Below are positions 4,945 to 46,393 of a stretch of DNA of 64,000 nt, piece after piece. The notes beneath the pieces were generated by a model. That model was not told where the DNA came from and made no database searches. It saw only the letters and a list, made by a program, of their open reading frames with translations. Each line of letters begins with the position of its first letter. Position 1 is the stretch's first letter. The stretch covers positions 18,786,001 through 18,850,000 of the forward strand of contig OX597833.1 of assembly GCA_951406725.2 (NCBI GenBank), in the 5' to 3' direction. Origin of the DNA: Octopus vulgaris. Taxonomy: Eukaryota. Made by a program: the position numbers and the translations under genes.

Positions 4945-5484
4945 TTAAAGGCCTTATTTTATTGCAAGTGTTGAGGGAAAGAAAGCTAGGAAGCAAAGTG
5001 TTTGCATTATTCTACCCAAATTAATGCTTTTTCATCCACATTGTTTTGAACTAATCATGCATTATCTTGTAGCTATGAGATTTTGATGAAGTAGCTGTTA
5101 ATTTTTAAAACGATATTGTAGGGTTGGTGTGAGAGACCAGATCTGGCCAGTTTGAACATAAAACAGGCAGAATACTTTTGGCCGGATATGGCCGGTTTAA
5201 ATGCTAAAGGGTTAAAGGCCTTGTTTTATTGCAAGTGTTGAGGGAAAGAAAGCTAGGAAGCAAACTGTTTGCATTATTCTACCCAAATTAATGCTTTTTT
5301 TATCCACAATGTTTTGAACTAATCATGCATTATCTTGTAGCTATGAGATTTTGATGAAGTAGCTGTTAATTTTTAAAACGATATTGTAGGGTTGGTGTGA
5401 GAGATCAGATCTCACCAGTTTGAACATAAAACAAGCAGAATACTTTTGGCCGGATATGGCCGGTTTAAATGCTAAAGGGTTAAA
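4945..5484. repeat. Direct tandem duplication (about 269 bp x2) containing a second TTAA-type MITE family
   Basis: ttaaaggcctt..ttgcaagtgttgagggaaagaaagctagg...gctaaagggttaaa occurs twice. The same MITE is at 2662-2891 and 3030-3228. Confidence 0.9.
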
Positions 5485-7467
5485 GAAATTTCAGATCAAC
5501 ATGGATTACAGAGTAAAAGCACATGGTTCAGTGGTTAAGGCATTGCACTCGTGATTATAAGATCATGGTTTTCATTTTGAGACCAAGTGGTGCACTGTGT
5601 TCGTGGTCAAAACACTTCAGTTAACCCCTTCTGAGACACATGTTGTTTTGGTATGTGTAACCAAAAAGACCTTTTTTTTTTTTTTTTAAATATTGAAAAA
5701 CATCTACTGGAAGACGATCTCTGATTAACTATTACACTTCAAAACCAACCATTCACAACATTTGTTCCATTGGGTCGATGGATCAGCCTTGAAGTCCTTT
5801 CCGCTCGTATCAGCCAGAGTGTCCCAAGGGGGTTAATGTTGCTCTAGTCCACTCAGCTGTGAATGCATGACCTTGGAACTGATTGGTGTCCCATTCAGGG
5901 CAAATGTTGTAATTTCAGTCACTTATACACCATGGAAACCAACGACTTGAGACAGTAATGTCCAAGGCATGATGATGATGGATTAACAGAGAAATGCAAG
6001 GGTTATGGGTAGCAGATGAGATAAAAATTTGGGGAGTGATAGCTAAGAGGGAGTAGTCACATCATCATTTAGCATCTGCTTTACATGCAGGCATGAGTTA
6101 GACGGTTGGTCTGAAACTGGTTAGTCAGAAAGCTGCACCAGGTTCCAATCTGTTTCTGCATGGTTTCTAAGGCTGGATGCCCTTCCTAACACCAACCACT
6201 TCTAAAGTGTAATGGGCGCATTTTATGTACCACCGGCACAGGTCTGTTTACATGAAACCAGCATCAGCCACAACTACGATTTCACCTGATGAGTCTTCTC
6301 AAACACAGCATATCGCCAAAGGTGTCAGTCACTTATCACCTCCATGAGGCCCAACATTCGATGGGTGCTTTTATACATGCTACCGGCACAAGTGCCTGTT
6401 ACATGGCACCAACATCGGCCACAACTACGGTTTCACTTGGCTTGACAGGTCTTCTCAAACACAGCACAAATATTAATAAATAAAGGACTTTATTCATTTT
6501 ATGAGCATGAACGCAATTTATGTACGAGTAAGTCCAGGCTGTCCACAAAAACCATTGACATTGAAAATGGTATATTATGCCAAATAGAAAGAAGTGATAT
6601 TCTACAGTTCAAGGTTAAAATTTACTTTAAAACATTCAAATTGCATTTCTTCTGATTATATTTTTAAAACATGTATTCTTTTTATTCAATAGATTGTATT
6701 CAAACTGCTACAGACAGTTAATCATCCCTATCATCATCGGTTTTCCGTGGTGGTATGAATCAAACAGGTTCTTGAAGTCCAAATCACTTCTTATTCAGAA
6801 TAAGAACTGACCTGGGAATACTGTCCTCTAAAACAGGATGGAGACCGCATCTCATTTATCTTTTTTATTTTTAGCCTGGTTTCTACAGAGATGCATTTTA
6901 ACGTGGCACTAGTGGAAGTACTGTGTACATGACAAGACAAAATGGTCCCCACTACTCATTCATTCAAGACAAAATGTAAAATCTATCATATCTCAGTTTT
7001 GCTTTCCACCCAAAAGATTCTGCTTTTTATATTTTTGCTCCAGCCTATCAACCACAAGCAACTACATGGCCTATATAAACCAATGAGGATGCTTTTACAA
7101 GGTCACTTTAACAGGTAGAAATAACTGCAAAATCTCCCTAAAATCACTCGTTATCCTCTTAGTAAAGGACATTGGATAATGTGATTCTGAACACTCTGGA
7201 TATTTGAAAACGACAGGATGGGCATAGCTAGAATGCTTTCGATTATATATCTGCTACATCAGGGCTAAAAGAACAACAAAGCATGTATGTGTTCACTCAT
7301 AGCAGCCAAAGAATCCAATACACACAAATGATATACATATAGTCATTTTAAATTGGGTGGTGGGACATTACAGGATAGCTTTTAGAAAGTTTTCAACAAG
7401 ATGTGAGAAGTTGTTAACAGGGAAAATAAACAACAAACAGGCTTTAATTCTACTTCACAATCTAAAG

Positions 7468-8609: not shown

Positions 8610-9567
8610 TCAGGCCAACCAAAGCCTTGCAAGTGGACTTGGTAGACAGAAATTGAGAGAAACCCATCATGTATATAGATAATATACTAGCAGCTAAGCC
8701 CGATTTCACCTGGTCTGTTTGGATGATGTGGCTGTGATCATTTTCGGTTAGGCATAATCTATATCAGCATTTTTCAACCTTATCATTTCGGGTCCCCTGT
8801 TTCAATTGGAGCCTCCAGCTGTATGAAAACAGCCTTGTCAGAAAACAGCTTCAGGAGTTGTGAAGAAAGAATTTGTACATAGTCTGTTTCTGGACCTCTG
8901 TCTAATTACGTCTTTTAAGGTACACACACATACATAAAAAATGTGAGGTCATGGTAGAAAATTTTTACGATAGCTGATTTATGGAAAAGATTGTTAAATT
9001 TTTGAAATGCAAATATGTGAGTGAAAATTAAGTTCAGACCTCTACATGGTAGCTAGACCTGGTAGAAATAGCAGCCAAATCTCCCTCAAAATATCCTACT
9101 GTCTTAATCCGACAATTCTGCCTATTATGTAGTTTGAATGAGAAACTAATCAAAGATGAAGATTATTAACCCCACCAAAGAGGTGAAAGAAGAGAGGCAG
9201 CCTAGATAAAGTTTTGGCTGGCTGTCATCCTGTACTTGTTGGGGGAGGGGAAAGGTTCTTTGTAGAAGAGCTACATCAGTGGTTCTCAAATGCAATTTGT
9301 TGGGAGGGATGAATCCCTATTTTTCTGATAGATCTCAAGTTGGAAGAAGGACTATATAGCCTTGGTCAACCCAAGGCTATGGTAGGACACACTTGCCCAG
9401 GGTGTTACACAGTGGAACTGAACCAAGAACAATGTTGGGAAGCAAGCTTCTTACCATACAGCCACGCCTGTGCTTAAAATATATATAAGATCAATGGCTG
9501 TGTGTCGCTTATTTACTTATACATTGCAAAATGAAATGAACGACTGCCATCTCTAGCACACAGGTGT

Positions 9568-9615
9568 ACCAGTACTGAGGAAGGGCGAGACCCTGAAACC
9601 AACTGGTCTATTGGT
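9568..9615 (+). ncRNA. Type I hammerhead ribozyme motif with intact core
   Basis: ACCAGTA-CTGAGGA-AGGG(CGAGA)CCCT-GAA-ACCA(AC)TGGT-C-TATTGGT. It has the CUGANGA and GAAA cores, a GUC cleavage triplet (after 9608) and three pairing stems. Confidence 0.85.
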
Positions 9616-10089
9616 CTTGTCACCACTAGATGGGAGCTATTCGCTCCCTTATTTGCAATATACTGGACACAGATATTGTGTTGTTAAACAGCTGGTGAAG
9701 GTGTCCTCCTGGGGTTAAAACGAGTAGTAACACTGTTCTATGCAGAACAACCACATGACATGATAACAACCATTACTTTTCAGTAGAGTTACTACTTACA
9801 TCTCTTAGAACTAGCAACTTTGCTTGTTATATATATATATATGTGCTGGTGGCACACTGTGCTGCTGCCACATAAAAAGCACCATTTGGGCGTGGCCGTT
9901 GCCAGTACCACCAAACTGGCCCTCGTGCCGGTGGCATGTAAAAGCACCCACTACACTCTCGGGGTGGTTGGCATTAGGAAGGGCATCCAGCTGTAGAAAC
10001 TCTGCCAGATTAGATTGGAGTCTGGTTCACCACACCGCAGTCAAATCGTCCAACCCATGCTAACATGGAAAGTGGACGTTAAATGACGA

Positions 10090-10125
<36 letters not shown>

Positions 10126-12213
10126 CGGACGTTAAACGATGATGATGATGATATATATTTTTTCAGTGGACTTCTTTCAGTTCCTGCCAAACAAATCAAC
10201 CCACATGGCTTTGGTCAACCTAGGGCTATAGTAGAAGACACTCACACAAGGTACCACACACTGGGACTGAACCCAGAACCATGTAGTTGGAAAGAAAATT
10301 TCTTACCAGAGCCACACCTATACCGATCCTACATCAGTATACCCACCACTGTCGTTCTACCCATCAGTATGTGCCCCCCTTACCTTGCCCTGTCCCCAAG
10401 ATCTATCAGTAAAATATTGATTCATCCCTGCCAGCCATCATCATGCACTTTGGATTTTCTAGCAGACCAAACAGCCTGAACTTCATTGTCTTCGTTTGCA
10501 ACACACATATAGCAAGTTCGACTGCCTTGGTTTATCTAATTAATATGTGTACACTCAGCAGACTATTTGTATGAACCGTTGGAATTTATCTAATCTCCTA
10601 CTAAGCCCAGCCGAACAGCACAATCAGAGCACTTGTTACTATTATTGTTGTTGTTATTCTCCTTATCATATATGCTGACTGTGCACAGATGTAGCTTTAT
10701 GGTAAAAAGTTTCTTCCCAACCACATGGTTCCAGGTTCAAGCCTACTGTGTGGCACCTTGGGCAAAGTCTTCAGCCGTAGCCCTAAGATTGAGCAAAGTC
10801 TTGTGAGAGGATATGGTAGATAGAAACTGAAAGAAGCCTGTTGTATGTGTGTGTCACTGTTACCTTGCTTTGACAATGTGTGATAGTTATAAATGAACGT
10901 CACCTTCATGCAAGTGGTACCCCAATTTTCCAAGAAAACGTGCGGTCATGAGGAAATATTGCCTTACATGGAAGCATATAGGTGTCAGTGGCAGGAAGGG
11001 CATCCAGCCATTGCAAATCCACTGCAACAATTTCATCATGATTCATGCAAGCATGAAAAAGTGTTCATAAAAATGATGATGTGATGCCTTGGTGGCTTGT
11101 CACAGGTTTTGCATATGTCCAATGTTTACCAGAGGCTGTGCATGAAAGTATGTGTTTGTGCACATGCACACATCTACTGTGTAAACTTCTGGATATGCTG
11201 CGCTTTTTTTTTTTACCAAAAATTTCAATAAAAACCAGGGGTGCAACCTATCCACTCAACATCACAGGGATCTGAAGTAGACGGTGGCATATCAGTAGTT
11301 GAGTTGATTTATCAATTAGACTGCTTTCACAAAATTACTTCCACAAAAATATTCTAATATTTGTAAGTAAAGTTTTGAAATAAAGGTGAATATTTGATAA
11401 TATTAAACAAATATTTATATTTACACTAAAAAGGGACATTTAATTCCCCAGATTGTAGTGTAACCTATCTGCAAGTCAACTGCAAATACCTACTTTGACA
11501 ACCCCAAACTAAAGGTACAACCTATCACCAAGTATATATGGTGTAAAGATTTACATATATGGTGTAGCAATACCATACTGTCCTACTTTCTTTTATCTTT
11601 AACCCCTCTTGGTCATTGGACTGTGGATGTACTGGGGCACTGCTTTGAAGTTTATAGTCTAACACTAAATCCAGGTGCTCGTATTTTTAAGCCTAGTACT
11701 TAGTTTATCAGCCTCTTTCACTGAACCACTAAGTTACAGAGATGTAAACAAACCAACCTCAATTGAGTGATGATGTGAGTAAAAAACAGGGATAAACACA
11801 CGCGCGCGACAGGCTCCCACAAAGTTTGCATCTACCAAATTCACCATTTGTTCGATGATATAAATTTCCTGTTTTAAATTGAGCTAAACTAAATCCTTCC
11901 ATCAATATTTGATGTTAACTTGTTCTTAAGATCTGCTTAATGACAAAATTATTTTAATAAAATTATTATTTTCAAAATTAATTGACACAAAAGCAGGGAA
12001 TTTCAGTGGAAATATAGTGACACAAAAGGGTTAATAAAATAACTGACAAAGTAATTGTGATTAATACATTCCACTAAAGCCCTCGAATGCAGTGCTGGGG
12101 GGCACTGCCTCAGTTAAAAGGAACAAAACTAGTAAAATGCATGTCAGTGAATACAGAACGCTTAAGAAATGTGAAAAGAGAACCACCATGCTTAGTCCAA
12201 GAAACAGACTTAC

Positions 12214-12452
12214 CTTTTCTTTACTGAGGTCATTGTCTGCAGATTTCTCTTTGCTGTCTACAGAATCAGCATCAGCTTCGGCGTTTTCTGCAGAACCTGC
12301 TTCCCCTGCCTCTTGAAGTGCCTGCTCAGCACCAGAACTCTCTTGCTCGGTAGCGGAAACCTCTTGTCCCACCTCTGTACTTGCTTCCTCGGCCAAACCG
12401 CCCGTTCCATCGTTTTCAGGATCGTCTTGGAAAGATTGTTCGCAGGTGTTTT
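12214..12452 (-). CDS. RNMT: RNMT coding exon 2, acidic low-complexity N-terminal region
   Basis: Acceptor ttgcag| at 12453 and donor AAG|GTAAGT at 12213. The 239 nt translate (E)NTCEQSFQDDPENDGTGGLAEEAS...DLSKEK. Phase 0 matches the next exon. Confidence 0.85.
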
Positions 12453-13077
12453 CTGCAATATAAAATTATATATATACTATTTTAACAAACTATTTTAACA
12501 ATATCTTTCTCCATTGCTGAATTTATCTGTAACACATCTGTTTATGTATCAACATTTCTCAAACCGAATTTAAATAGTTCTTCCTAAATTCTTACGCCTC
12601 AACTTAATACTCAGGCTATGTAATGCACATCACATATAGAGAAATGAGGGAAATTTCTCTGCATAAAATTGATTATACTTCTGCAACACACTAAATATTT
12701 TAAGAATTTTTTTTTTATACAGTTCTTAATATTTAATCAGAAAATATAATATAATTTTTTAACAGTGAATGGCTTGGAGTAAAACAGTAAAATGAAAGAG
12801 GTCCAGAGGTAACAAAATGGTCAAGAAACTTTGATGTAGAATGAATGAGATAGAAATATCATTATTTCTAATTCTCTCTAAAGGAAACTACAGCAGCAGT
12901 ACTGAATATTAATAGTAATTGCCAAACTAACATGGCAGTCCAGAAAAATAGGACGAATGCTGTTGTTGATCAGCTCCAAGAGGCCATTGCCTCTAACTAG
13001 CTATGTGACACACAAACCTGTGTCCATTATAACCTTCGAACAGGGGAGGTCAGCAGCTTCCCTTTGCTGGTCTGGCA

Positions 13078-13120
13078 TCCACAGATTAGTTTCGGGGTGG
13101 TTGCCTCTTATCAATGTGGA
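13078..13120 (-). ncRNA. Degenerate type I hammerhead ribozyme motif
   Basis: Minus strand TCCACA-TTGATAA-GAGG(CAACCA)CCCC-GAAAC-TA-ATC-TGTGGA. It is four transitions away from CTGATGA-GGGG..CCCC-GAAACTAGTC, and stem I pairs perfectly. Confidence 0.7.
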
Positions 13121-13330
13121 GTAGCCGAACCCAGCAGGCATCACTGCTAACCAACTGTTCGAAGGATTATTTACCTAAATTCAGTAGAATACATCCACTG
13201 GTTTTCAAAAATAGAAATATCATTATTTCTAATTCTCTCTAAAGGAGACTACGGTCAGCGGTACTGGAGGAAGAGTTATTACACAGTTGGTAGGCTGGGT
13301 AATAAGCGGAGGCAATACCTAGTTTGTATA

Positions 13331-33210: not shown

Positions 33211-35994
33211 TACATTCTTTGAATGGCAGTGTCAGAATATATGTCAGGCTGATCTTCTGCCAGAGTATCTTCCTTTCTTTATCTCCATATCATATTGTTT
33301 CATGTACAGTAAGACAGAACCTGATAGTACAGCAAGGTTTCTGCAAAGATATCATACTGGCACAGCTTGAAAAATAATGTTTCAAGTGTTGTATCTTTTG
33401 GACTTCATTCTCGTTGCACAGCTGTTGCTTGAATGATTTTCCAAAAGGAAAATGCTGTGGTGTATTTTATGAAGGAAAAAGGTAAAATAAAAAAAGTGTC
33501 AGAAACCTCATTGCTATGGGTATGCTGACCCCCACTGGAATTGAAGTGTCTTTCATCTTTTATAATTAACTTGTTTTAGTCATTAGACTACAGCTATGCT
33601 GGGGCACTGCCCTTACGAATTTTGGTCAGATGAATCAACCCCCACCCTCTTCAATACTTTTTTTTTTTAAAACCTGGTACTTATTATATCCTGCGATGGA
33701 CTGGCGTCCCGTCCAGCTGGGGGGTAGACATATGCCACAGAAACCAGGAAGCCCATGAGCCTGGCTAGGCTTGAAAAGGGTGACGTTTTTTTTTTATTAT
33801 TATATCTGCCTTTTTTGCTAAACCACTAAGTTACAGGGACATAAACACATTGGTGCCAGTTGTTGTGTGGTGGTAGGGGGACAAATACAGACATAAAGAA
33901 CCACACGTGCACATATTTATATATGTGTAGTGGAAACCACGACAGGTTGGTATATCTAATTAGAAAATGGAAAAGCATGCAACGTAAAAAAGTTAATTTT
34001 GGCCAGTATGTGTGTACACATTCTCATAGTAGTAATCCACAGATAGAGATAGAATGATGTTGTAAGAGAAAATAAATTGAGCTAGTGAAAGTTATAGAAT
34101 CGAAGGAAGTTGTGTCCCATTGATGGCTGATTATAATTTTCTTTCTCCCTCTGACCATTTGTCTTTAGTAACTGCCTATGTGCAACCATGATTCTAGTTG
34201 TCCGTTCACTAACTGATGGTTGCTCTCACTAACTCGGATTGCAGTGACTGAGTCCAGAACTTTGTAGCTGAAGAGAAAAAACAGTCACAATCTTAGCTAG
34301 GAAAAATAGTCACTGGAAAAAAGCTATACTTTATTTAAATACTATAAACAAAGTAATAAAGCAAAATATATTTCAAATCAGTTGTTAACTGACAGTACAT
34401 AGCTTGTAAAAAAATTTATGTATGATGGCATTGCACATATGTGAAAAATAAAATTTATTTAGTTTCTTAAGCAAAGTAACACAATGGAAACTAAAAGTTT
34501 AAGTCAGTCATTTATTGACAATACATAATGTGTACAGGTTGATTGGACACCTTGACATAATATAAGGGTATTACGTGTATATTCAGTATTTTTAATGTTG
34601 ATGACTAAGACGAATATTCCAGCAAATGCCACAAAGAAATTCAGCCACAGTCTTGTGGGTCTCCCATTGAACAATACACAAGTTAACCCTTTTGTTACTG
34701 TAATTATTTTGAGATGCTCTGTGTTTCTTTCAATTACTTTAAATATGATAAAGAATTTAGTAAAATTACTTAGTTATCATTAAGCTAATGTTAGGAACAT
34801 GAATTGTGACTAAGGTTTGGTGGAAGATTTTATTTCAAAACTTATGGAAACAAGACATTTGTACTCAGAGCCAGAGCCGGTTTCAGCCGGGTTGGTATTG
34901 AAAGGGTTAAGGAGGCATTCGTGTAGCTGTGACCCTGTTTTTCTGTGACTTTTTCACAAATTTGGAATCGGATAACTTATCATGGATGTTTTGTTTCATC
35001 GGATTAAACACTGCAGCATCAGATCTTTTATTGACATATTTGCAGGCATATTTAATGGACTTTATCTAATTGTTGTGTTGTGTTGTGACCCCCTTCGGTC
35101 ATGAATGACCATAGGATTGCACCAGAGTAGAGTGAAGAAGCTACACCTTTTCACAAGTTGCAAGCCATTTGACAGTACCTAATGGGAATGGAAATTATGT
35201 TTGCATAATTTTTTTTCTATAGTCATACTCTTTTACTTGTTTCAGTCATTTGGCTGCAGCCATGCTGGAGCACTACCTTTAGTCAAAGAAATCGCCCCCA
35301 GGACTTATTCTTTGTAAGCCTAGTACTTATTCTATCGGACTCTTTTGCCCAACCGCTAAGTGACAGGGACATAAACACACCAGCATCGGTTGTCAAGCGA
35401 TGCTGGAGGACAAACACACAAACATATACTCACACATACATACACACACACACATATATGCGACAGGCTTCTTTCAGTTTCCGTCTACCAAGTCCATTCA
35501 CAAGGCTTTGATCAGCCCGACGCTATAGCAGAAGACACTTGCCCAAGGTGCCACACAGTGGGACTGAACCCAGAACCATGTGGTTGGTAAGCAAGCTACT
35601 CACCACACAGCCACTCCTGCGCCTAATGCATCTGAAATGAAAGCATGTCATGCTTTATAAACATAGGAAAGGTTGCTTTCTTAGTTTTGTCTAAAATAAA
35701 TTAATTCTATTTTCAATGATTTTTAACATCTTCTCAATGTATCTAGGAATAAACTACATTCTTGAGGGCATGTAGTGCATGCTTGCATACCTGGAATGCA
35801 TGCCAATGGAAACATGTATAGTGATTAAAAAATAACTGTCCAACCATACTCCTTATCTTATTCAATTTTATTTTCACACATGATGAATGCCCAAACCTAG
35901 ACTTGGAAGTATATCGTAATACTACTGGCTGTTTGGTAATTCTAAGGGTGAACGAGTTCTATTTTGTACTCTGCTACGTTCCTAACAGAATATG

Positions 35995-36320
35995 TGGTCG
36001 ATGCCAGATCCATTTGACTAGCTCTTGTGCCGGTGGCACATAAAAAGCACTATCTGAATGTGGCCGATGCCAGTACCCCCTGACTGGCTCCTTTGCCGGT
36101 GGCACGTAGAAAGTACTATCTGAACATGATCGATGCCAGGACCACCTGACTGGCCCCTGTGCTGGTGGTACACAAAAAGCACTATCCGAATGCGATTGAT
36201 GCTAGGACTGCCTGAGTGGCCCCTGTGCTGGTGGCACGTAAAAAGAACTATCTGAACATGATCGATGCCAGGCCCACCTGACTGGCTCTTGTGCTGGTGG
36301 CATGTAAAATGTGCCCACTA
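35995..36320 (+). repeat. Five tandem 66-bp subunits at the 5' side of a family B element
   Basis: The unit gtggccgatgccagtacc.cctgactggc.cctgtgccggtggcacgtaaaaagcactatctgaa is repeated five times with divergence. Confidence 0.85.
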
Positions 36321-37791: not shown

Positions 37792-37964
37792 TCAAATGAT
37801 TTATTACAAAATGAAAGTGATTATGAATCATGTTGGTAAAGTCTAAATGATTTATTTCTGACATAAAAATATGAAAACAAAATTATTTAACTTTCAGGGA
37901 AATACAAAGATTCTTCTTCATTTACAAAGATCTGGGCATGTATCTCACTTTAACTTGGTGAATA

Positions 37965-38912
37965 TTAAACCCTTTCATTACCAACCCGGCTGAAACCGGC
38001 TCTGGCTCTGTAGTACAAATGTCTTGTTTTCATAAGTTATGAATTAAAATCTTCCACCAAACTATAGTTACAATTTATGTTCCTAACACTAGCTTAATAA
38101 TAACTAAGTTATTTTACTAAATTCTTTGTTATATTTAAAATAATTGAAAGAAACACAGAGCATCTCAACAGAAATATGGTAACAAAAGGGTTAACAAATT
38201 ATTAATTTAACCCTTTCAATACCATCCCAGCTGAAACCACCTCTGGCTCTGTAGTACAAATGTCTTGTTTTCATAAGTTTTGAATTAATCTTCCACCAAA
38301 CCTTAGTTACAATTTATGTTCCTAACACTAGCTTAATAATAACTAAGTTATTTTACTAAATTCTTTGTTATATTTAAAATTAATTGAAAGAAACACAGAG
38401 CATCTCAACAGAAATATGGTAACAAAAGGGTTAACAAATTATTAATTTAACCCTTTCAATACCATCCCAGCTGAAACCACCTCTGGCTCTGTAGTACAAA
38501 TGTCTTGTTTTCATAAGTTTTGAATTAATCTTCCACCAAACCTTAGTTACAATTTATGTTCCTAACACTAGCTTAATAATAACTAAGTTATTTTACTAAA
38601 TTCTTTGTTATATTTAAAATTAATTGAAAGAAACACAGAGCATCTCAACAGAAATATGGTAACAAAAGGGTTAACAAATTATTAATTTAACCCTTTCAAT
38701 ACCATCCCAGCTGAAACCACCTCTGGCTCTGTAGTACAAATGTCTTGTTTTCATAAGTTTTGAATTAATCTTCCACCAAACCTTAGTTACAATTTATGTT
38801 CCTAACACTAGCTTAATAATAACTAAGTTATTTTACTAAATTCTTTGTTATATTTAAAATTAATTGAAAGAAACACAACATCTCAAAATAAATATGGTAA
38901 TGGAAGGGTTAA
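37965..38912. repeat. Tandem array of four TTAA (piggyBac-like) MITE copies, 240-bp period
   Basis: TTAACCCTTT...AAAGGGTTAA ends. 38221-38460 is identical to 38461-38700. Dispersed copies at 34683-34910, 52561-52788 and 55618-55844. Confidence 0.93.
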
Positions 38913-45092: not shown

Positions 45093-46059
45093 ATAATAAT
45101 AATAATAAAACCGTTATTAACTCTGATTAGTTTAATTAATCTTGGTAATCACTTAAGTTCTGTTTTCTCTACCTGAAGTTGTTTATGTACATATTTAAGA
45201 GCAGTTACCCCAAAACTGAGGATTATTTCGCCAAAAAAACGTATGAAATATTGCAATTATTAAATTAAAAAAAAGTTATTCTTTTATTTAAATATTAGAA
45301 AAAAGTGTCACGAAGAATTATTGATTTGAAGCAATAGATCGTGATAAAAGTTTGGGAACCTTTGACGGGGAACCTTTAACGAACTGGCTCGCTCTCTCTC
45401 TTGGGCTCGTTGCAGTAACCTATATTCTTACTGTTACCACATATTATTTTGCTTCATATTGTACATTTGGTAAGTTTCATTCAGGTGTACAGTTATATTC
45501 GGTCGGCAGAACTATGTGCAGACAGATTTGTGAAATTAATGTCGTGTCGAGTTTATTAATCAATACCCGCCCCGTTCGAGTGTCTGCTAAGCAGCAAGGC
45601 AAGAGATTCAATATTAAGGAAAATCGGCTAATTAATATTATTGTTTATAAATCGATAGTGTGTTAATCGATTTATGGTTTAAATTATGCCTTTGAATTAG
45701 TAAGTCAAAGCAAGTGAAGCAGAATGTACACTGCCTTTTATAAACCATTGAAGACTGTTGAATTTGCTCATGAGTCCACGCTGGTGTGTATAGCCATGTC
45801 ACACCCGCTGTAGGATAAAATATTCCAGGGTCTCACTAAACTCCTTGAACGTGGAAGGTTGTTTTTATTAGTATGCATATTAGACATATCCCTATTATAC
45901 ATAACTATATCTACCATTTATATTATAAAAACTGTGTTTTTTTGTTATTTTTGGTGTTTTTTTTAACAGTGACGTGCCCCCTTTGTATATCTCAATGGCT
46001 GACATCTCTAATCGACGCTATGTGAAGGTCGATGACTGCCTAACATATCTGACTGGGTT

Positions 46060-46393
46060 TATTGTGAATTCCAGTGGATGATAGCTCTGTGAAAGGATTA
46101 TGGGAGATTTTGGGGTAACATCTGTGCGATGTGACATAGTAAGAATGACAAAAAGAGACACAGGTAGATGCATTAGTTAGTTGAGAGGCGCAGGGATGGG
46201 AGCTTTATTATGACAATAAAAAGGTATATTGTGAATTCCAGTGGATGGTAGCTTTGTGAAAGGATTATGGGAGATTTTGGGGTAACATCTGTGCGATGAG
46301 ACATAGTAAGGATGACAAAAAGCGACACAGGTAGATGCATTAATTAGTTCAGAGGCGCAGAGACGGGAGCTTTATTATGACAATAAAAAGGTA
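46060..46393. repeat. Tandem duplication, 2 x 167 bp
   Basis: attgtgaattccagtggatg...tgacaataaaaaggta starts at 46061 and again at 46228 with few substitutions. Confidence 0.9.

Follow-up and report, generated by a model that had tools for sequence, protein, structure and literature searches.

Non-LTR (long terminal repeat) retrozymes of Metazoa, reported from coral, Mytilus (350-390 bp) and axolotl (330/350 bp), are non-coding units of a few hundred nucleotides with a type I hammerhead, a GC content below 50%, tandem copies, a weak palindromic helix III and a highly paired fold, as described in the accessible text of PMC7229834. Here we report on a 64,000-nt stretch of the Octopus vulgaris genome (assembly GCA_951406725.2, contig OX597833.1, positions 18,786,001 to 18,850,000, forward strand; hereafter the window), which contains two elements, copy A and copy B, whose families resemble retrozymes in all these respects when set beside that published description. 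By every feature testable here the elements are non-LTR retrozymes, and two of their features are new relative to the papers searched. In the available part of a 2020 review (PMC7761336), retrozymes seem to be without a promoter and without a conserved motif pointing to their mobiliser; in contrast, the units described here carry an element resembling the proximal sequence element (PSE) of small nuclear RNA (snRNA) genes and a tail of the type known from Penelope-like elements (PLEs). We consider it likely that copies A and B are decayed insertions of homologous 360-nt non-LTR retrozymes, probably copied from RNA circles by a PLE reverse transcriptase (RT) and probably provided with an internal promoter of the U1/U2 type.

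Endonuclease (EN)-bearing PLEs such as Neptune and Poseidon are described with two 3' ends, a tail on one end only, an inverted 5'-truncated arm, partial tandems and AT-rich or microsatellite targets (10.1101/2021.04.23.441226 and PMC11167929, as far as available), and with a U3-A8 variant of the hammerhead core (PMC4209133, in part), all of which recur here. The units differ from them in having no open reading frame (ORF), a full hammerhead on a 140-nt rod, no match to the PLE pseudo-LTRs (pLTRs) examined, and a tail of 45-60 nt rather than 30-40 nt. Two further hammerhead repeats with internal promoters are cited in the accessible part of PMC2220036: newt satellite 2, of about 330 bp, with a promoter for RNA polymerase II (Pol II) of the snRNA type, and schistosome Sm-alpha, whose promoter is of the Pol III type, whereas the units here match the U1/U2 and not the U6 promoters of their genome. 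Non-LTR retrozymes of Xenopus have been argued to depend on PLEs (10.64898/2026.07.22.740005); the evidence in the available text of that study is co-occurrence and pLTR homology, with no mollusc sampled, whereas here it consists of insertion ends. A search of the open literature (Repbase, Dfam and subscription journals being outside the scope) brought up no publication that treats cephalopod retrozymes, a retrozyme PSE or the PLE tail of a non-LTR retrozyme, and the families may already be catalogued as repeats.

Transcription and the mobilising enzyme of animal retrozymes are stated to be open points in the accessible parts of PMC7761336 and PMC7229834. For both, the group offers a prediction at nucleotide level: an element common to U1 and U2 genes would drive transcription from a start about 60 nt ahead of the cut, and mobilisation would involve two starts of complementary DNA (cDNA) that reproduce a signature specific to PLEs, the candidate being a PLE of the same genome that is young and looks intact. 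With thousands of such elements, introns would also contain potential promoters and self-cleaving sites by the thousand.

The window copies and their families

Copies A and B are fossils and dead ends, decayed members of two different families. Their features are as follows.

9487..9828, plus strand: copy A, one near-complete unit of the old family A (about 354 nt) with an 11-nt deletion in the tail
9486..9504, plus strand: PSE-like element of copy A (motif 1 of the initial annotation), rank 1 of 674 with the U1-promoter matrix; putative function
9518-9521, plus strand: TATA-like run of copy A; start predicted near 9548
9523..9659, plus strand: rod of copy A, from its fold and the family rods
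9569..9614, plus strand: type I hammerhead of copy A, from sequence and alignment; cut predicted after 9608
9666..9717, plus strand: two-hairpin domain of copy A, a GACACA hairpin, then a stem, an AGCU/UGG internal loop, a stem and a GNUG loop
9780..9828, plus strand: tail of copy A, between the short (about 9779) and long (9828) 3' ends
12850..13281, minus strand: copy B, 1.2 units of family B with a period of 361 nt
13188..13206, minus strand: PSE-like element of copy B (CCAGTGGATGTA), rank 1 of 726 with all three matrices; putative function
13173-13168, minus strand: TATA-like TAAATA of copy B; start predicted near 13144
13028..13170, minus strand: rod of copy B, fold z -6.7
13078..13120, minus strand: type I hammerhead of copy B; cut predicted after 13084
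12971..13024, minus strand: two-hairpin domain of copy B
12850..12905, minus strand: tail of copy B, between the short (about 12906) and long (12850) 3' ends

The 3' terminus of copy A is the long 3' end, TA repeats flank the copy on both sides, and a TCTC/GAGA hairpin within its tail is partly deleted. Copy B consists of a 5'-truncated tail piece (13281-13211) followed by a whole unit (13210-12850), and a 58-nt direct repeat gives the 361-nt period. The hammerhead of copy A has stem I at 9569-74/9609-14, the core CUGAGGA (C3-G8), stem II AGGG/CCCU and GAAA; its stem III loop is CCAACUGG, where family A commonly has CCAGCUGG. The hammerhead of copy B, with stem I UCCACA/UGUGGA, the core UUGAUAA (U3-A8), stem II GAGG/CCCC with an A-C mismatch, a one-pair stem III and loop III CUAA in place of the CUAG of family B, is likely inactive. 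Each window copy holds one hammerhead, and the loop III palindrome is broken in both. The core of the PSE-like element is TCAATGG in window copy A and TCAGCGG in better copies of family A. A palindrome, CCAGCTGG, occurs twice in family A, in loop III of the hammerhead (9599-9606) and in the second domain hairpin (9688-9696), and has no counterpart in B.

The initial annotation had described five modules in the same order in both copies, and all five are present where it placed them. The local alignment of A (9480-9840, plus strand) with B (12840-13280, minus strand) scores 68, against 25.5 ± 3.6 in shuffles (0 of 500 as high), and the downstream domain taken by itself aligns at 40 against 14.8 (again 0 of 500). 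The short upstream motif 1 and the tail motif 5 are conserved at family level and not in the pairwise comparison, in which 315 and 51 of 500 shuffles, respectively, scored as high; the GGG/CCC stem II proposed for both copies fits A and not B. The notion of two copies of one element had to be given up, as a query of either family found no match in the 30 loci of the other (E 1e-4), and in place of a single family there are at least six related ones (A-F) with one common layout: a rod with a type I hammerhead at its tip, two conserved hairpins and a tail. The three points that the initial annotation had set beforehand turned out in its favour: further copies exist and covariation is present, the downstream domains align, and the units do not look like ordinary LTR pieces of an autonomous Penelope.

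The expected abundance of a retrozyme-like element was borne out by 577 (A) and 2131 (B) genomic candidates. The best 40 of each were scored, samples biased towards the best matches of each query; the best other copies are 72-86% identical in family A and 86-93% in family B. The covariance model of the domain was run on selected loci, and the genome-wide search was made with DNA patterns. A pattern of two B-type cores one unit apart gave 28 matches against 0 and turned up trimers of a younger B subfamily as well as the third family, C. With patterns that link the end of the hammerhead to the first hairpin there were 495 and 1664 matches, against 4 and 1 in reversed controls, the exact family A form matching once, as expected for an old family; families D, E and F and a D/E intermediate were identified in 38 stretches taken from the pattern matches. 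Units measure 354-362 nt, with a GC fraction of 0.42-0.49 and a longest methionine-initiated ORF of 21-58 aa (four units). The tandem multimers that the initial annotation suggested looking for are present in the younger families, as head-to-tail arrays of up to 5.6 units, and tandems with two or more hammerheads occur in families B, C and D; among 46 family A insertions no two-hammerhead tandem was seen. Most copies are dispersed insertions of 0.3-1.6 units, so that a search based on tandems would miss most of them. Family B sequence is also found in sequencing runs under several organism labels, more than half of its words being present in two further ones; the family is therefore likely older than the split of those organisms.

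Structure is kept while sequence drifts, as had been proposed: helices covary between families. Rods whose arms are unrelated give folding z scores of -3.3 to -8.5 (11 natural copies, seven subfamilies), those of family A z scores of -3.3 to -5.7 (4 copies), with one weak copy, L005, at z -0.9; of the two window rods, that of B folds clearly (z -6.7) and that of A reaches only z -2.2. Stems I and II of the B hammerheads covary among subfamilies (30 hammerheads), and the core swaps from C3-G8 to U3-A8 between families and within family C. A palindromic loop III was counted in 44 of 53 copies of B, in 36 of 40 of the C type and in 6 of 8 others, and each of the four palindromes that a C-NN-G loop allows (CTAG, CATG, CCGG, CGCG) is represented; family A entered this count with only 5 copies, 1 of them palindromic. 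A palindromic loop on a weak helix III is described for hammerheads that cut as dimers (PMC4209133 and PMC7229834, in their accessible parts). Rfam reported no hammerhead in the window (E<=1), nor in 9450-9850 (E<=5), and its model Hammerhead_HH9 matches related copies below the gathering score (L215, 36.5 bits, E 4.4e-6; L214, 25.8 bits); the hammerhead call accordingly rests on the core letters and covariation.

The two-hairpin domain is a real RNA structure. Across 51 sequences 94.1% of its cells pair, and four pairs of the second hairpin are changed on both sides between A and B. Since the sequences are related, which inflates the shuffle test, these four double-sided changes are the evidence. 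Families C-F add further paired changes, and the AGCU/UGG loop is mostly kept. Two roles within the unit were considered for parts of the domain and rejected: pairing of loop III with the AGCU of the domain fits A only, with no covariation in B, and as a promoter element the domain has, among the matches listed, only words of chance length in common with the 300 nt upstream of U2 genes.

An upstream element resembling U1 and U2 promoters

The likeness of motif 1 to the U1/U2 promoter element, like the two-end Penelope signature treated below, is absent from the initial annotation. U2 genes have a conserved element near -58 that resembles motif 1, and the same holds for the U1 genes, which were examined afterwards; T[CT]AGT stands at -55 to -60 in 27 of 30 U1 and 23 of 25 U2 loci. 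With a scoring matrix built from five U1 promoter types, the site comes first of about 680 in the two window copies and in the representatives of families A, B, C, D and G. The top site lies 110-125 nt before the cut in 70 of 143 hammerhead-centred stretches, that is, in 70 of the 88 copies untruncated there, where chance gives about 2%; among the 18 misses are 5 shifted, inverted or interrupted copies and 9 of family C. From the PSE-like site to the predicted cut there are 114-119 nt, and a TATA-like run lies 25-30 nt after the core in every one of the seven family representatives, as it does in ten types of snRNA promoter. The best copies reach up to 23.7 bits, compared with 15-24 in the training set, and 0-1% of random 360-nt windows reach the scores of B1, D and G. 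No PSE match was found in the three PLE repeats examined. On this sequence evidence we regard motif 1 as rather probably an internal promoter of the U1/U2 snRNA type. The promoter of newt satellite 2, a vertebrate case, presumably has a layout of octamer plus PSE. A U6-type Pol III promoter was rejected for the units, the U6 genes having an octamer and a TATA box without the TCAGT core.

Several points weigh against this assignment. A matrix built from U2 genes only ranks family A sites 4, 15 and 39 of 684; the family F site ranks 4 with the U1 matrix, and scores are weaker in C3, D2 and F; and 9 of 28 C copies, largely of the youngest subfamily, have another top site. The promoter idea itself came from inspecting U2 promoters, and homologous families amount to few independent events. 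The PSE-like motif is moreover an arm of an RNA hairpin, which could be an alternative cause of its conservation.

This last point leads to a different explanation, in which the retrozymes have no promoter of their own, the motif being a hairpin arm, perhaps an enzyme binding site past the long RT start, with a PSE likeness due to chance. We find it unlikely, if better founded than the other alternatives. The motif does form a hairpin in A, B, C, D and F, and according to the available text of PMC11167929 the RNA has to continue for about 55 nt beyond the RT starts, the very region of this hairpin; TATA-like runs arise easily in AT-rich linkers, and the weak scores in C3, D2 and F are as this explanation would have them. 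Against it, the best copies score like real promoters, strand, cut distance and TATA spacing all fit, and newt satellite 2 provides a precedent (cited in PMC2220036, seen in part). The promoter and hairpin roles need not exclude each other.

The snRNA genes themselves show an unusual split of promoter types, U6 promoters having an octamer at about -75 and TATA at -30 without TCAGT, and U1 and U2 promoters a TATA-like run at about -30. Many U6 copies (L251, L256, L265-L267, L270, L276, L278, L279) are directly followed by the same GC-rich repeat head, and several of these are preceded by (TA)n; they are possibly a family of chimeras between U6 and a short interspersed nuclear element (SINE).

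Insertion ends and the candidate enzyme

Insertions of families A, B and C end at two alternative 3' ends about 57 nt apart. Long, short and other 3' ends number 23, 15 and 8 in A (n=46) and 35, 18 and 3 in B (n=56), and C has 10 long and 12 short (n=22). The 5' ends are ragged; they pass the cut site and continue into the tail of the unit itself, for as many as 5.6 units. Of the 28 inverted insertions of B, 21 combine a long with a short end, 1 has short ends on both sides, none has long ends on both sides and 6 have an end that is unclassed, so that 21 of the 22 classifiable ones have one end of each type (20 of 21 if L106 and L107, which look like one duplicated insertion, are counted once); the same holds for 8 of 9 in C and 5 of 8 in A. 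Profile-based end calls missed some inversions through self-matching of the rod; B was recounted by blastn, and the A and C counts are profile-based. (TA)4 occurs no more than 22 nt from the 3' end in 11 of 46 A, 20 of 56 B and 18 of 22 C insertions, against 4.5-7% in flank controls. Target duplications, scored in 24 of the 56 B insertions after 32 had been set aside for microsatellite flanks, measure 8-14 nt and were found in 7 of 10 inverted ones (control 14 of 552). In B they are confined to inverted insertions, as if both nicked strands prime there and plain insertions resolve differently. No LTR layout was seen, primer-binding sites and polypurine tracts not being part of the search. A tail on one end only is described for PLEs in the accessible text of 10.1101/2021.04.23.441226, and PMC11167929, in the part available, traces it to two start sites of the RT, both DNA strands being cut and extended, and regards it as a feature of PLEs only.

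Over 170 nt, family C units differ by 1.45 positions within a locus and by 11.3 between loci, inverted arms included, which argues that one template was copied repeatedly. There was no pile-up of 5' ends at the ribozyme cut among the copies examined, which argues against a linear cut monomer as template. The template might instead be an uncut linear multimer, from read-through or the internal promoter, copied by the same Penelope-type enzyme, the hammerhead being an inherited pLTR feature and circles irrelevant to mobility. Hammerhead mutants of one PLE insert normally in vitro, with uncut RNA as the main substrate (PMC11167929, accessible part), a result that also tells against copying from circles, and no RNA evidence of circles was obtained here. 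In the array L224 a variant recurs in alternate forward units (2 and 4), which points to a dimer circle as template or to a later dimer duplication; a single monomer circle does not account for it unless such a duplication followed. Yet forward and inverted units of one insertion carry locus-private variants (the 1.45 against 11.3 differences), canonical stems and palindromic loops are kept by compensatory change in six families, and circles have been shown for coral, mussel and axolotl retrozymes (PMC7229834, accessible part); the uncut linear template is therefore improbable in our estimate. Apparent circle joints in family B contigs were discarded, as they merely cross the chosen cut point, as genomic copies also do, and the contigs come from presumed RNA runs and from a DNA-like run.

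The mobilising enzyme was looked for among proteins with a GIY-YIG domain. The search gave 6136 candidates; many 781-aa frames were among the best 150, which were scored, and 30 loci were examined. The 781-aa protein has RT and GIY-YIG domains and a cysteine-rich linker, and the element is Neptune-like, classed by the description in the available part of 10.1101/2021.04.23.441226. The repeat of a young Neptune-like element has a minimal U3-A8 hammerhead with the loop CATG, two 3' ends and TA targets, and a CTC/GAG hairpin is found in the tails of both the retrozymes and the autonomous element. The retrozyme loci hold no attached autonomous element, in agreement with the initial annotation: among 140 loci no contiguous RT/GIY-YIG ORF was seen, and PLE proteins match 3, each a separate neighbouring insertion. 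By blastn or covariance model, retrozymes and possible partner pLTRs had no sequence in common (30-34 PLE loci of few families). A PLE class of enzyme is well supported; the exact partner is a candidate only.

Where the enzyme might bind is a separate matter. The downstream domain had been proposed as its recognition signal, which found no support, since the RT start sites inferred from copy ends lie 60-120 nt beyond the domain; its covariance model found A and B and none in 32 autonomous PLE loci except one inserted B copy, weak evidence as it also missed family C. In our view the domain would most likely serve as a binding site for a protein in the circle. The hairpins at the two RT starts are, with hindsight, at least equal candidates for the enzyme signal, because the tail of the autonomous element also has the CTC/GAG hairpin.

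Other features of these PLEs were recorded. In L091 (406-4087) and L092-L094 a second open frame of 333-479 aa from stop to stop, with no clear Pfam match, precedes the 781-aa RT-EN frame, and in L092-L094 the two overlap in different phases; descriptions of canonical EN+ PLEs give them one ORF. Within the 3' repeat region of the young Neptune-like element lie a TATA box and tandem motifs CCAAT and TGACGTC. The minimal hammerheads of L091, L077, L076, L081, L082 and L164 have loop III CATG or CCGG, as in retrozyme subfamilies B2 and C; with four such palindromes existing, this may be chance. A mixed retrozyme-PLE hammerhead through these common loops was rejected, as the stem I arms do not match.

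That the units are solo pLTRs or 3' remnants of unsampled autonomous PLEs is very improbable: tail, inversions and TA targets are indeed common to both, no more than the best 150 of the 6136 candidates were scored and 30 examined, and Xenopus retrozymes are described as homologous to pLTRs (10.64898/2026.07.22.740005, accessible part), but the units have their own tail upstream, up to 5.6 times, and never an ORF, the three loci with PLE protein matches owe them to separate neighbours, and the pLTRs examined have minimal hammerheads without rod, domain or PSE match.

Proposed cycle and other features of the window

The cycle we propose would begin with a two-hammerhead copy transcribed by Pol II from the PSE-like element, with a start about 60 nt before the first cut. 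The two hammerheads would then cut as a dimer, as the palindromic loop III and the literature suggest, and release one unit that includes the promoter of the next; a host ligase may close it into a circle, as in other animals. An endonuclease-bearing Penelope-like protein would nick AT-rich or (TA)n DNA, the end pattern being observed and the enzyme presumed. From there cDNA would start at one of two fixed sites, which lie about 57 nt apart, or in many cases at both, using the two nicked strands, and run round the circle; the observed products have 0.3-5.6 head-to-tail units and ragged 5' ends, the units of any one insertion being near-identical, and an inverted arm is frequent. Only insertions spanning two hammerheads would serve as new sources. 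A fuller version, which we offer tentatively, would place the whole cycle in one unit, with a captured promoter, a dimer-cleaving hammerhead, Neptune-type rolling from two fixed start sites and a domain, conserved in six families that have otherwise diverged, that binds a protein (the enzyme, the ligase or a factor silencing the ribozyme in the circle); the youngest family would be active, and snRNA promoters and PLE tails would be general among animal retrozymes and overlooked.

Some results speak against the cycle as drawn. Transcription start, dimer cleavage, circle, enzyme identity and any role of the domain are inferred, and neither a transcript start nor cleavage nor a circle was observed here. 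Blastn found no similarity between the PLE pLTRs examined and the 140 retrozyme loci, and those pLTRs showed no two-hairpin domain with a model that also missed family C. Target duplications were found in 0 of 14 non-inverted B insertions, and in one subfamily of A (5 of 26 rows) loop III carries a two-letter insertion and is not palindromic.

Between the two copies, and outside the elements, lies one further feature.

12214..12455, minus strand: exon of a host gene; contigs of runs X2 and X6 end at the exon edges, and splice dinucleotides are present

The exon is acidic and of low complexity, and spliced contigs are found in runs X2 and X6. The window also contains tandem repeats at 4945-5485, 35992-36309, 37964-38912 and 46056-46393, with units of 268, 66, 240 and 167 nt, respectively; neither retrozyme query matches them.

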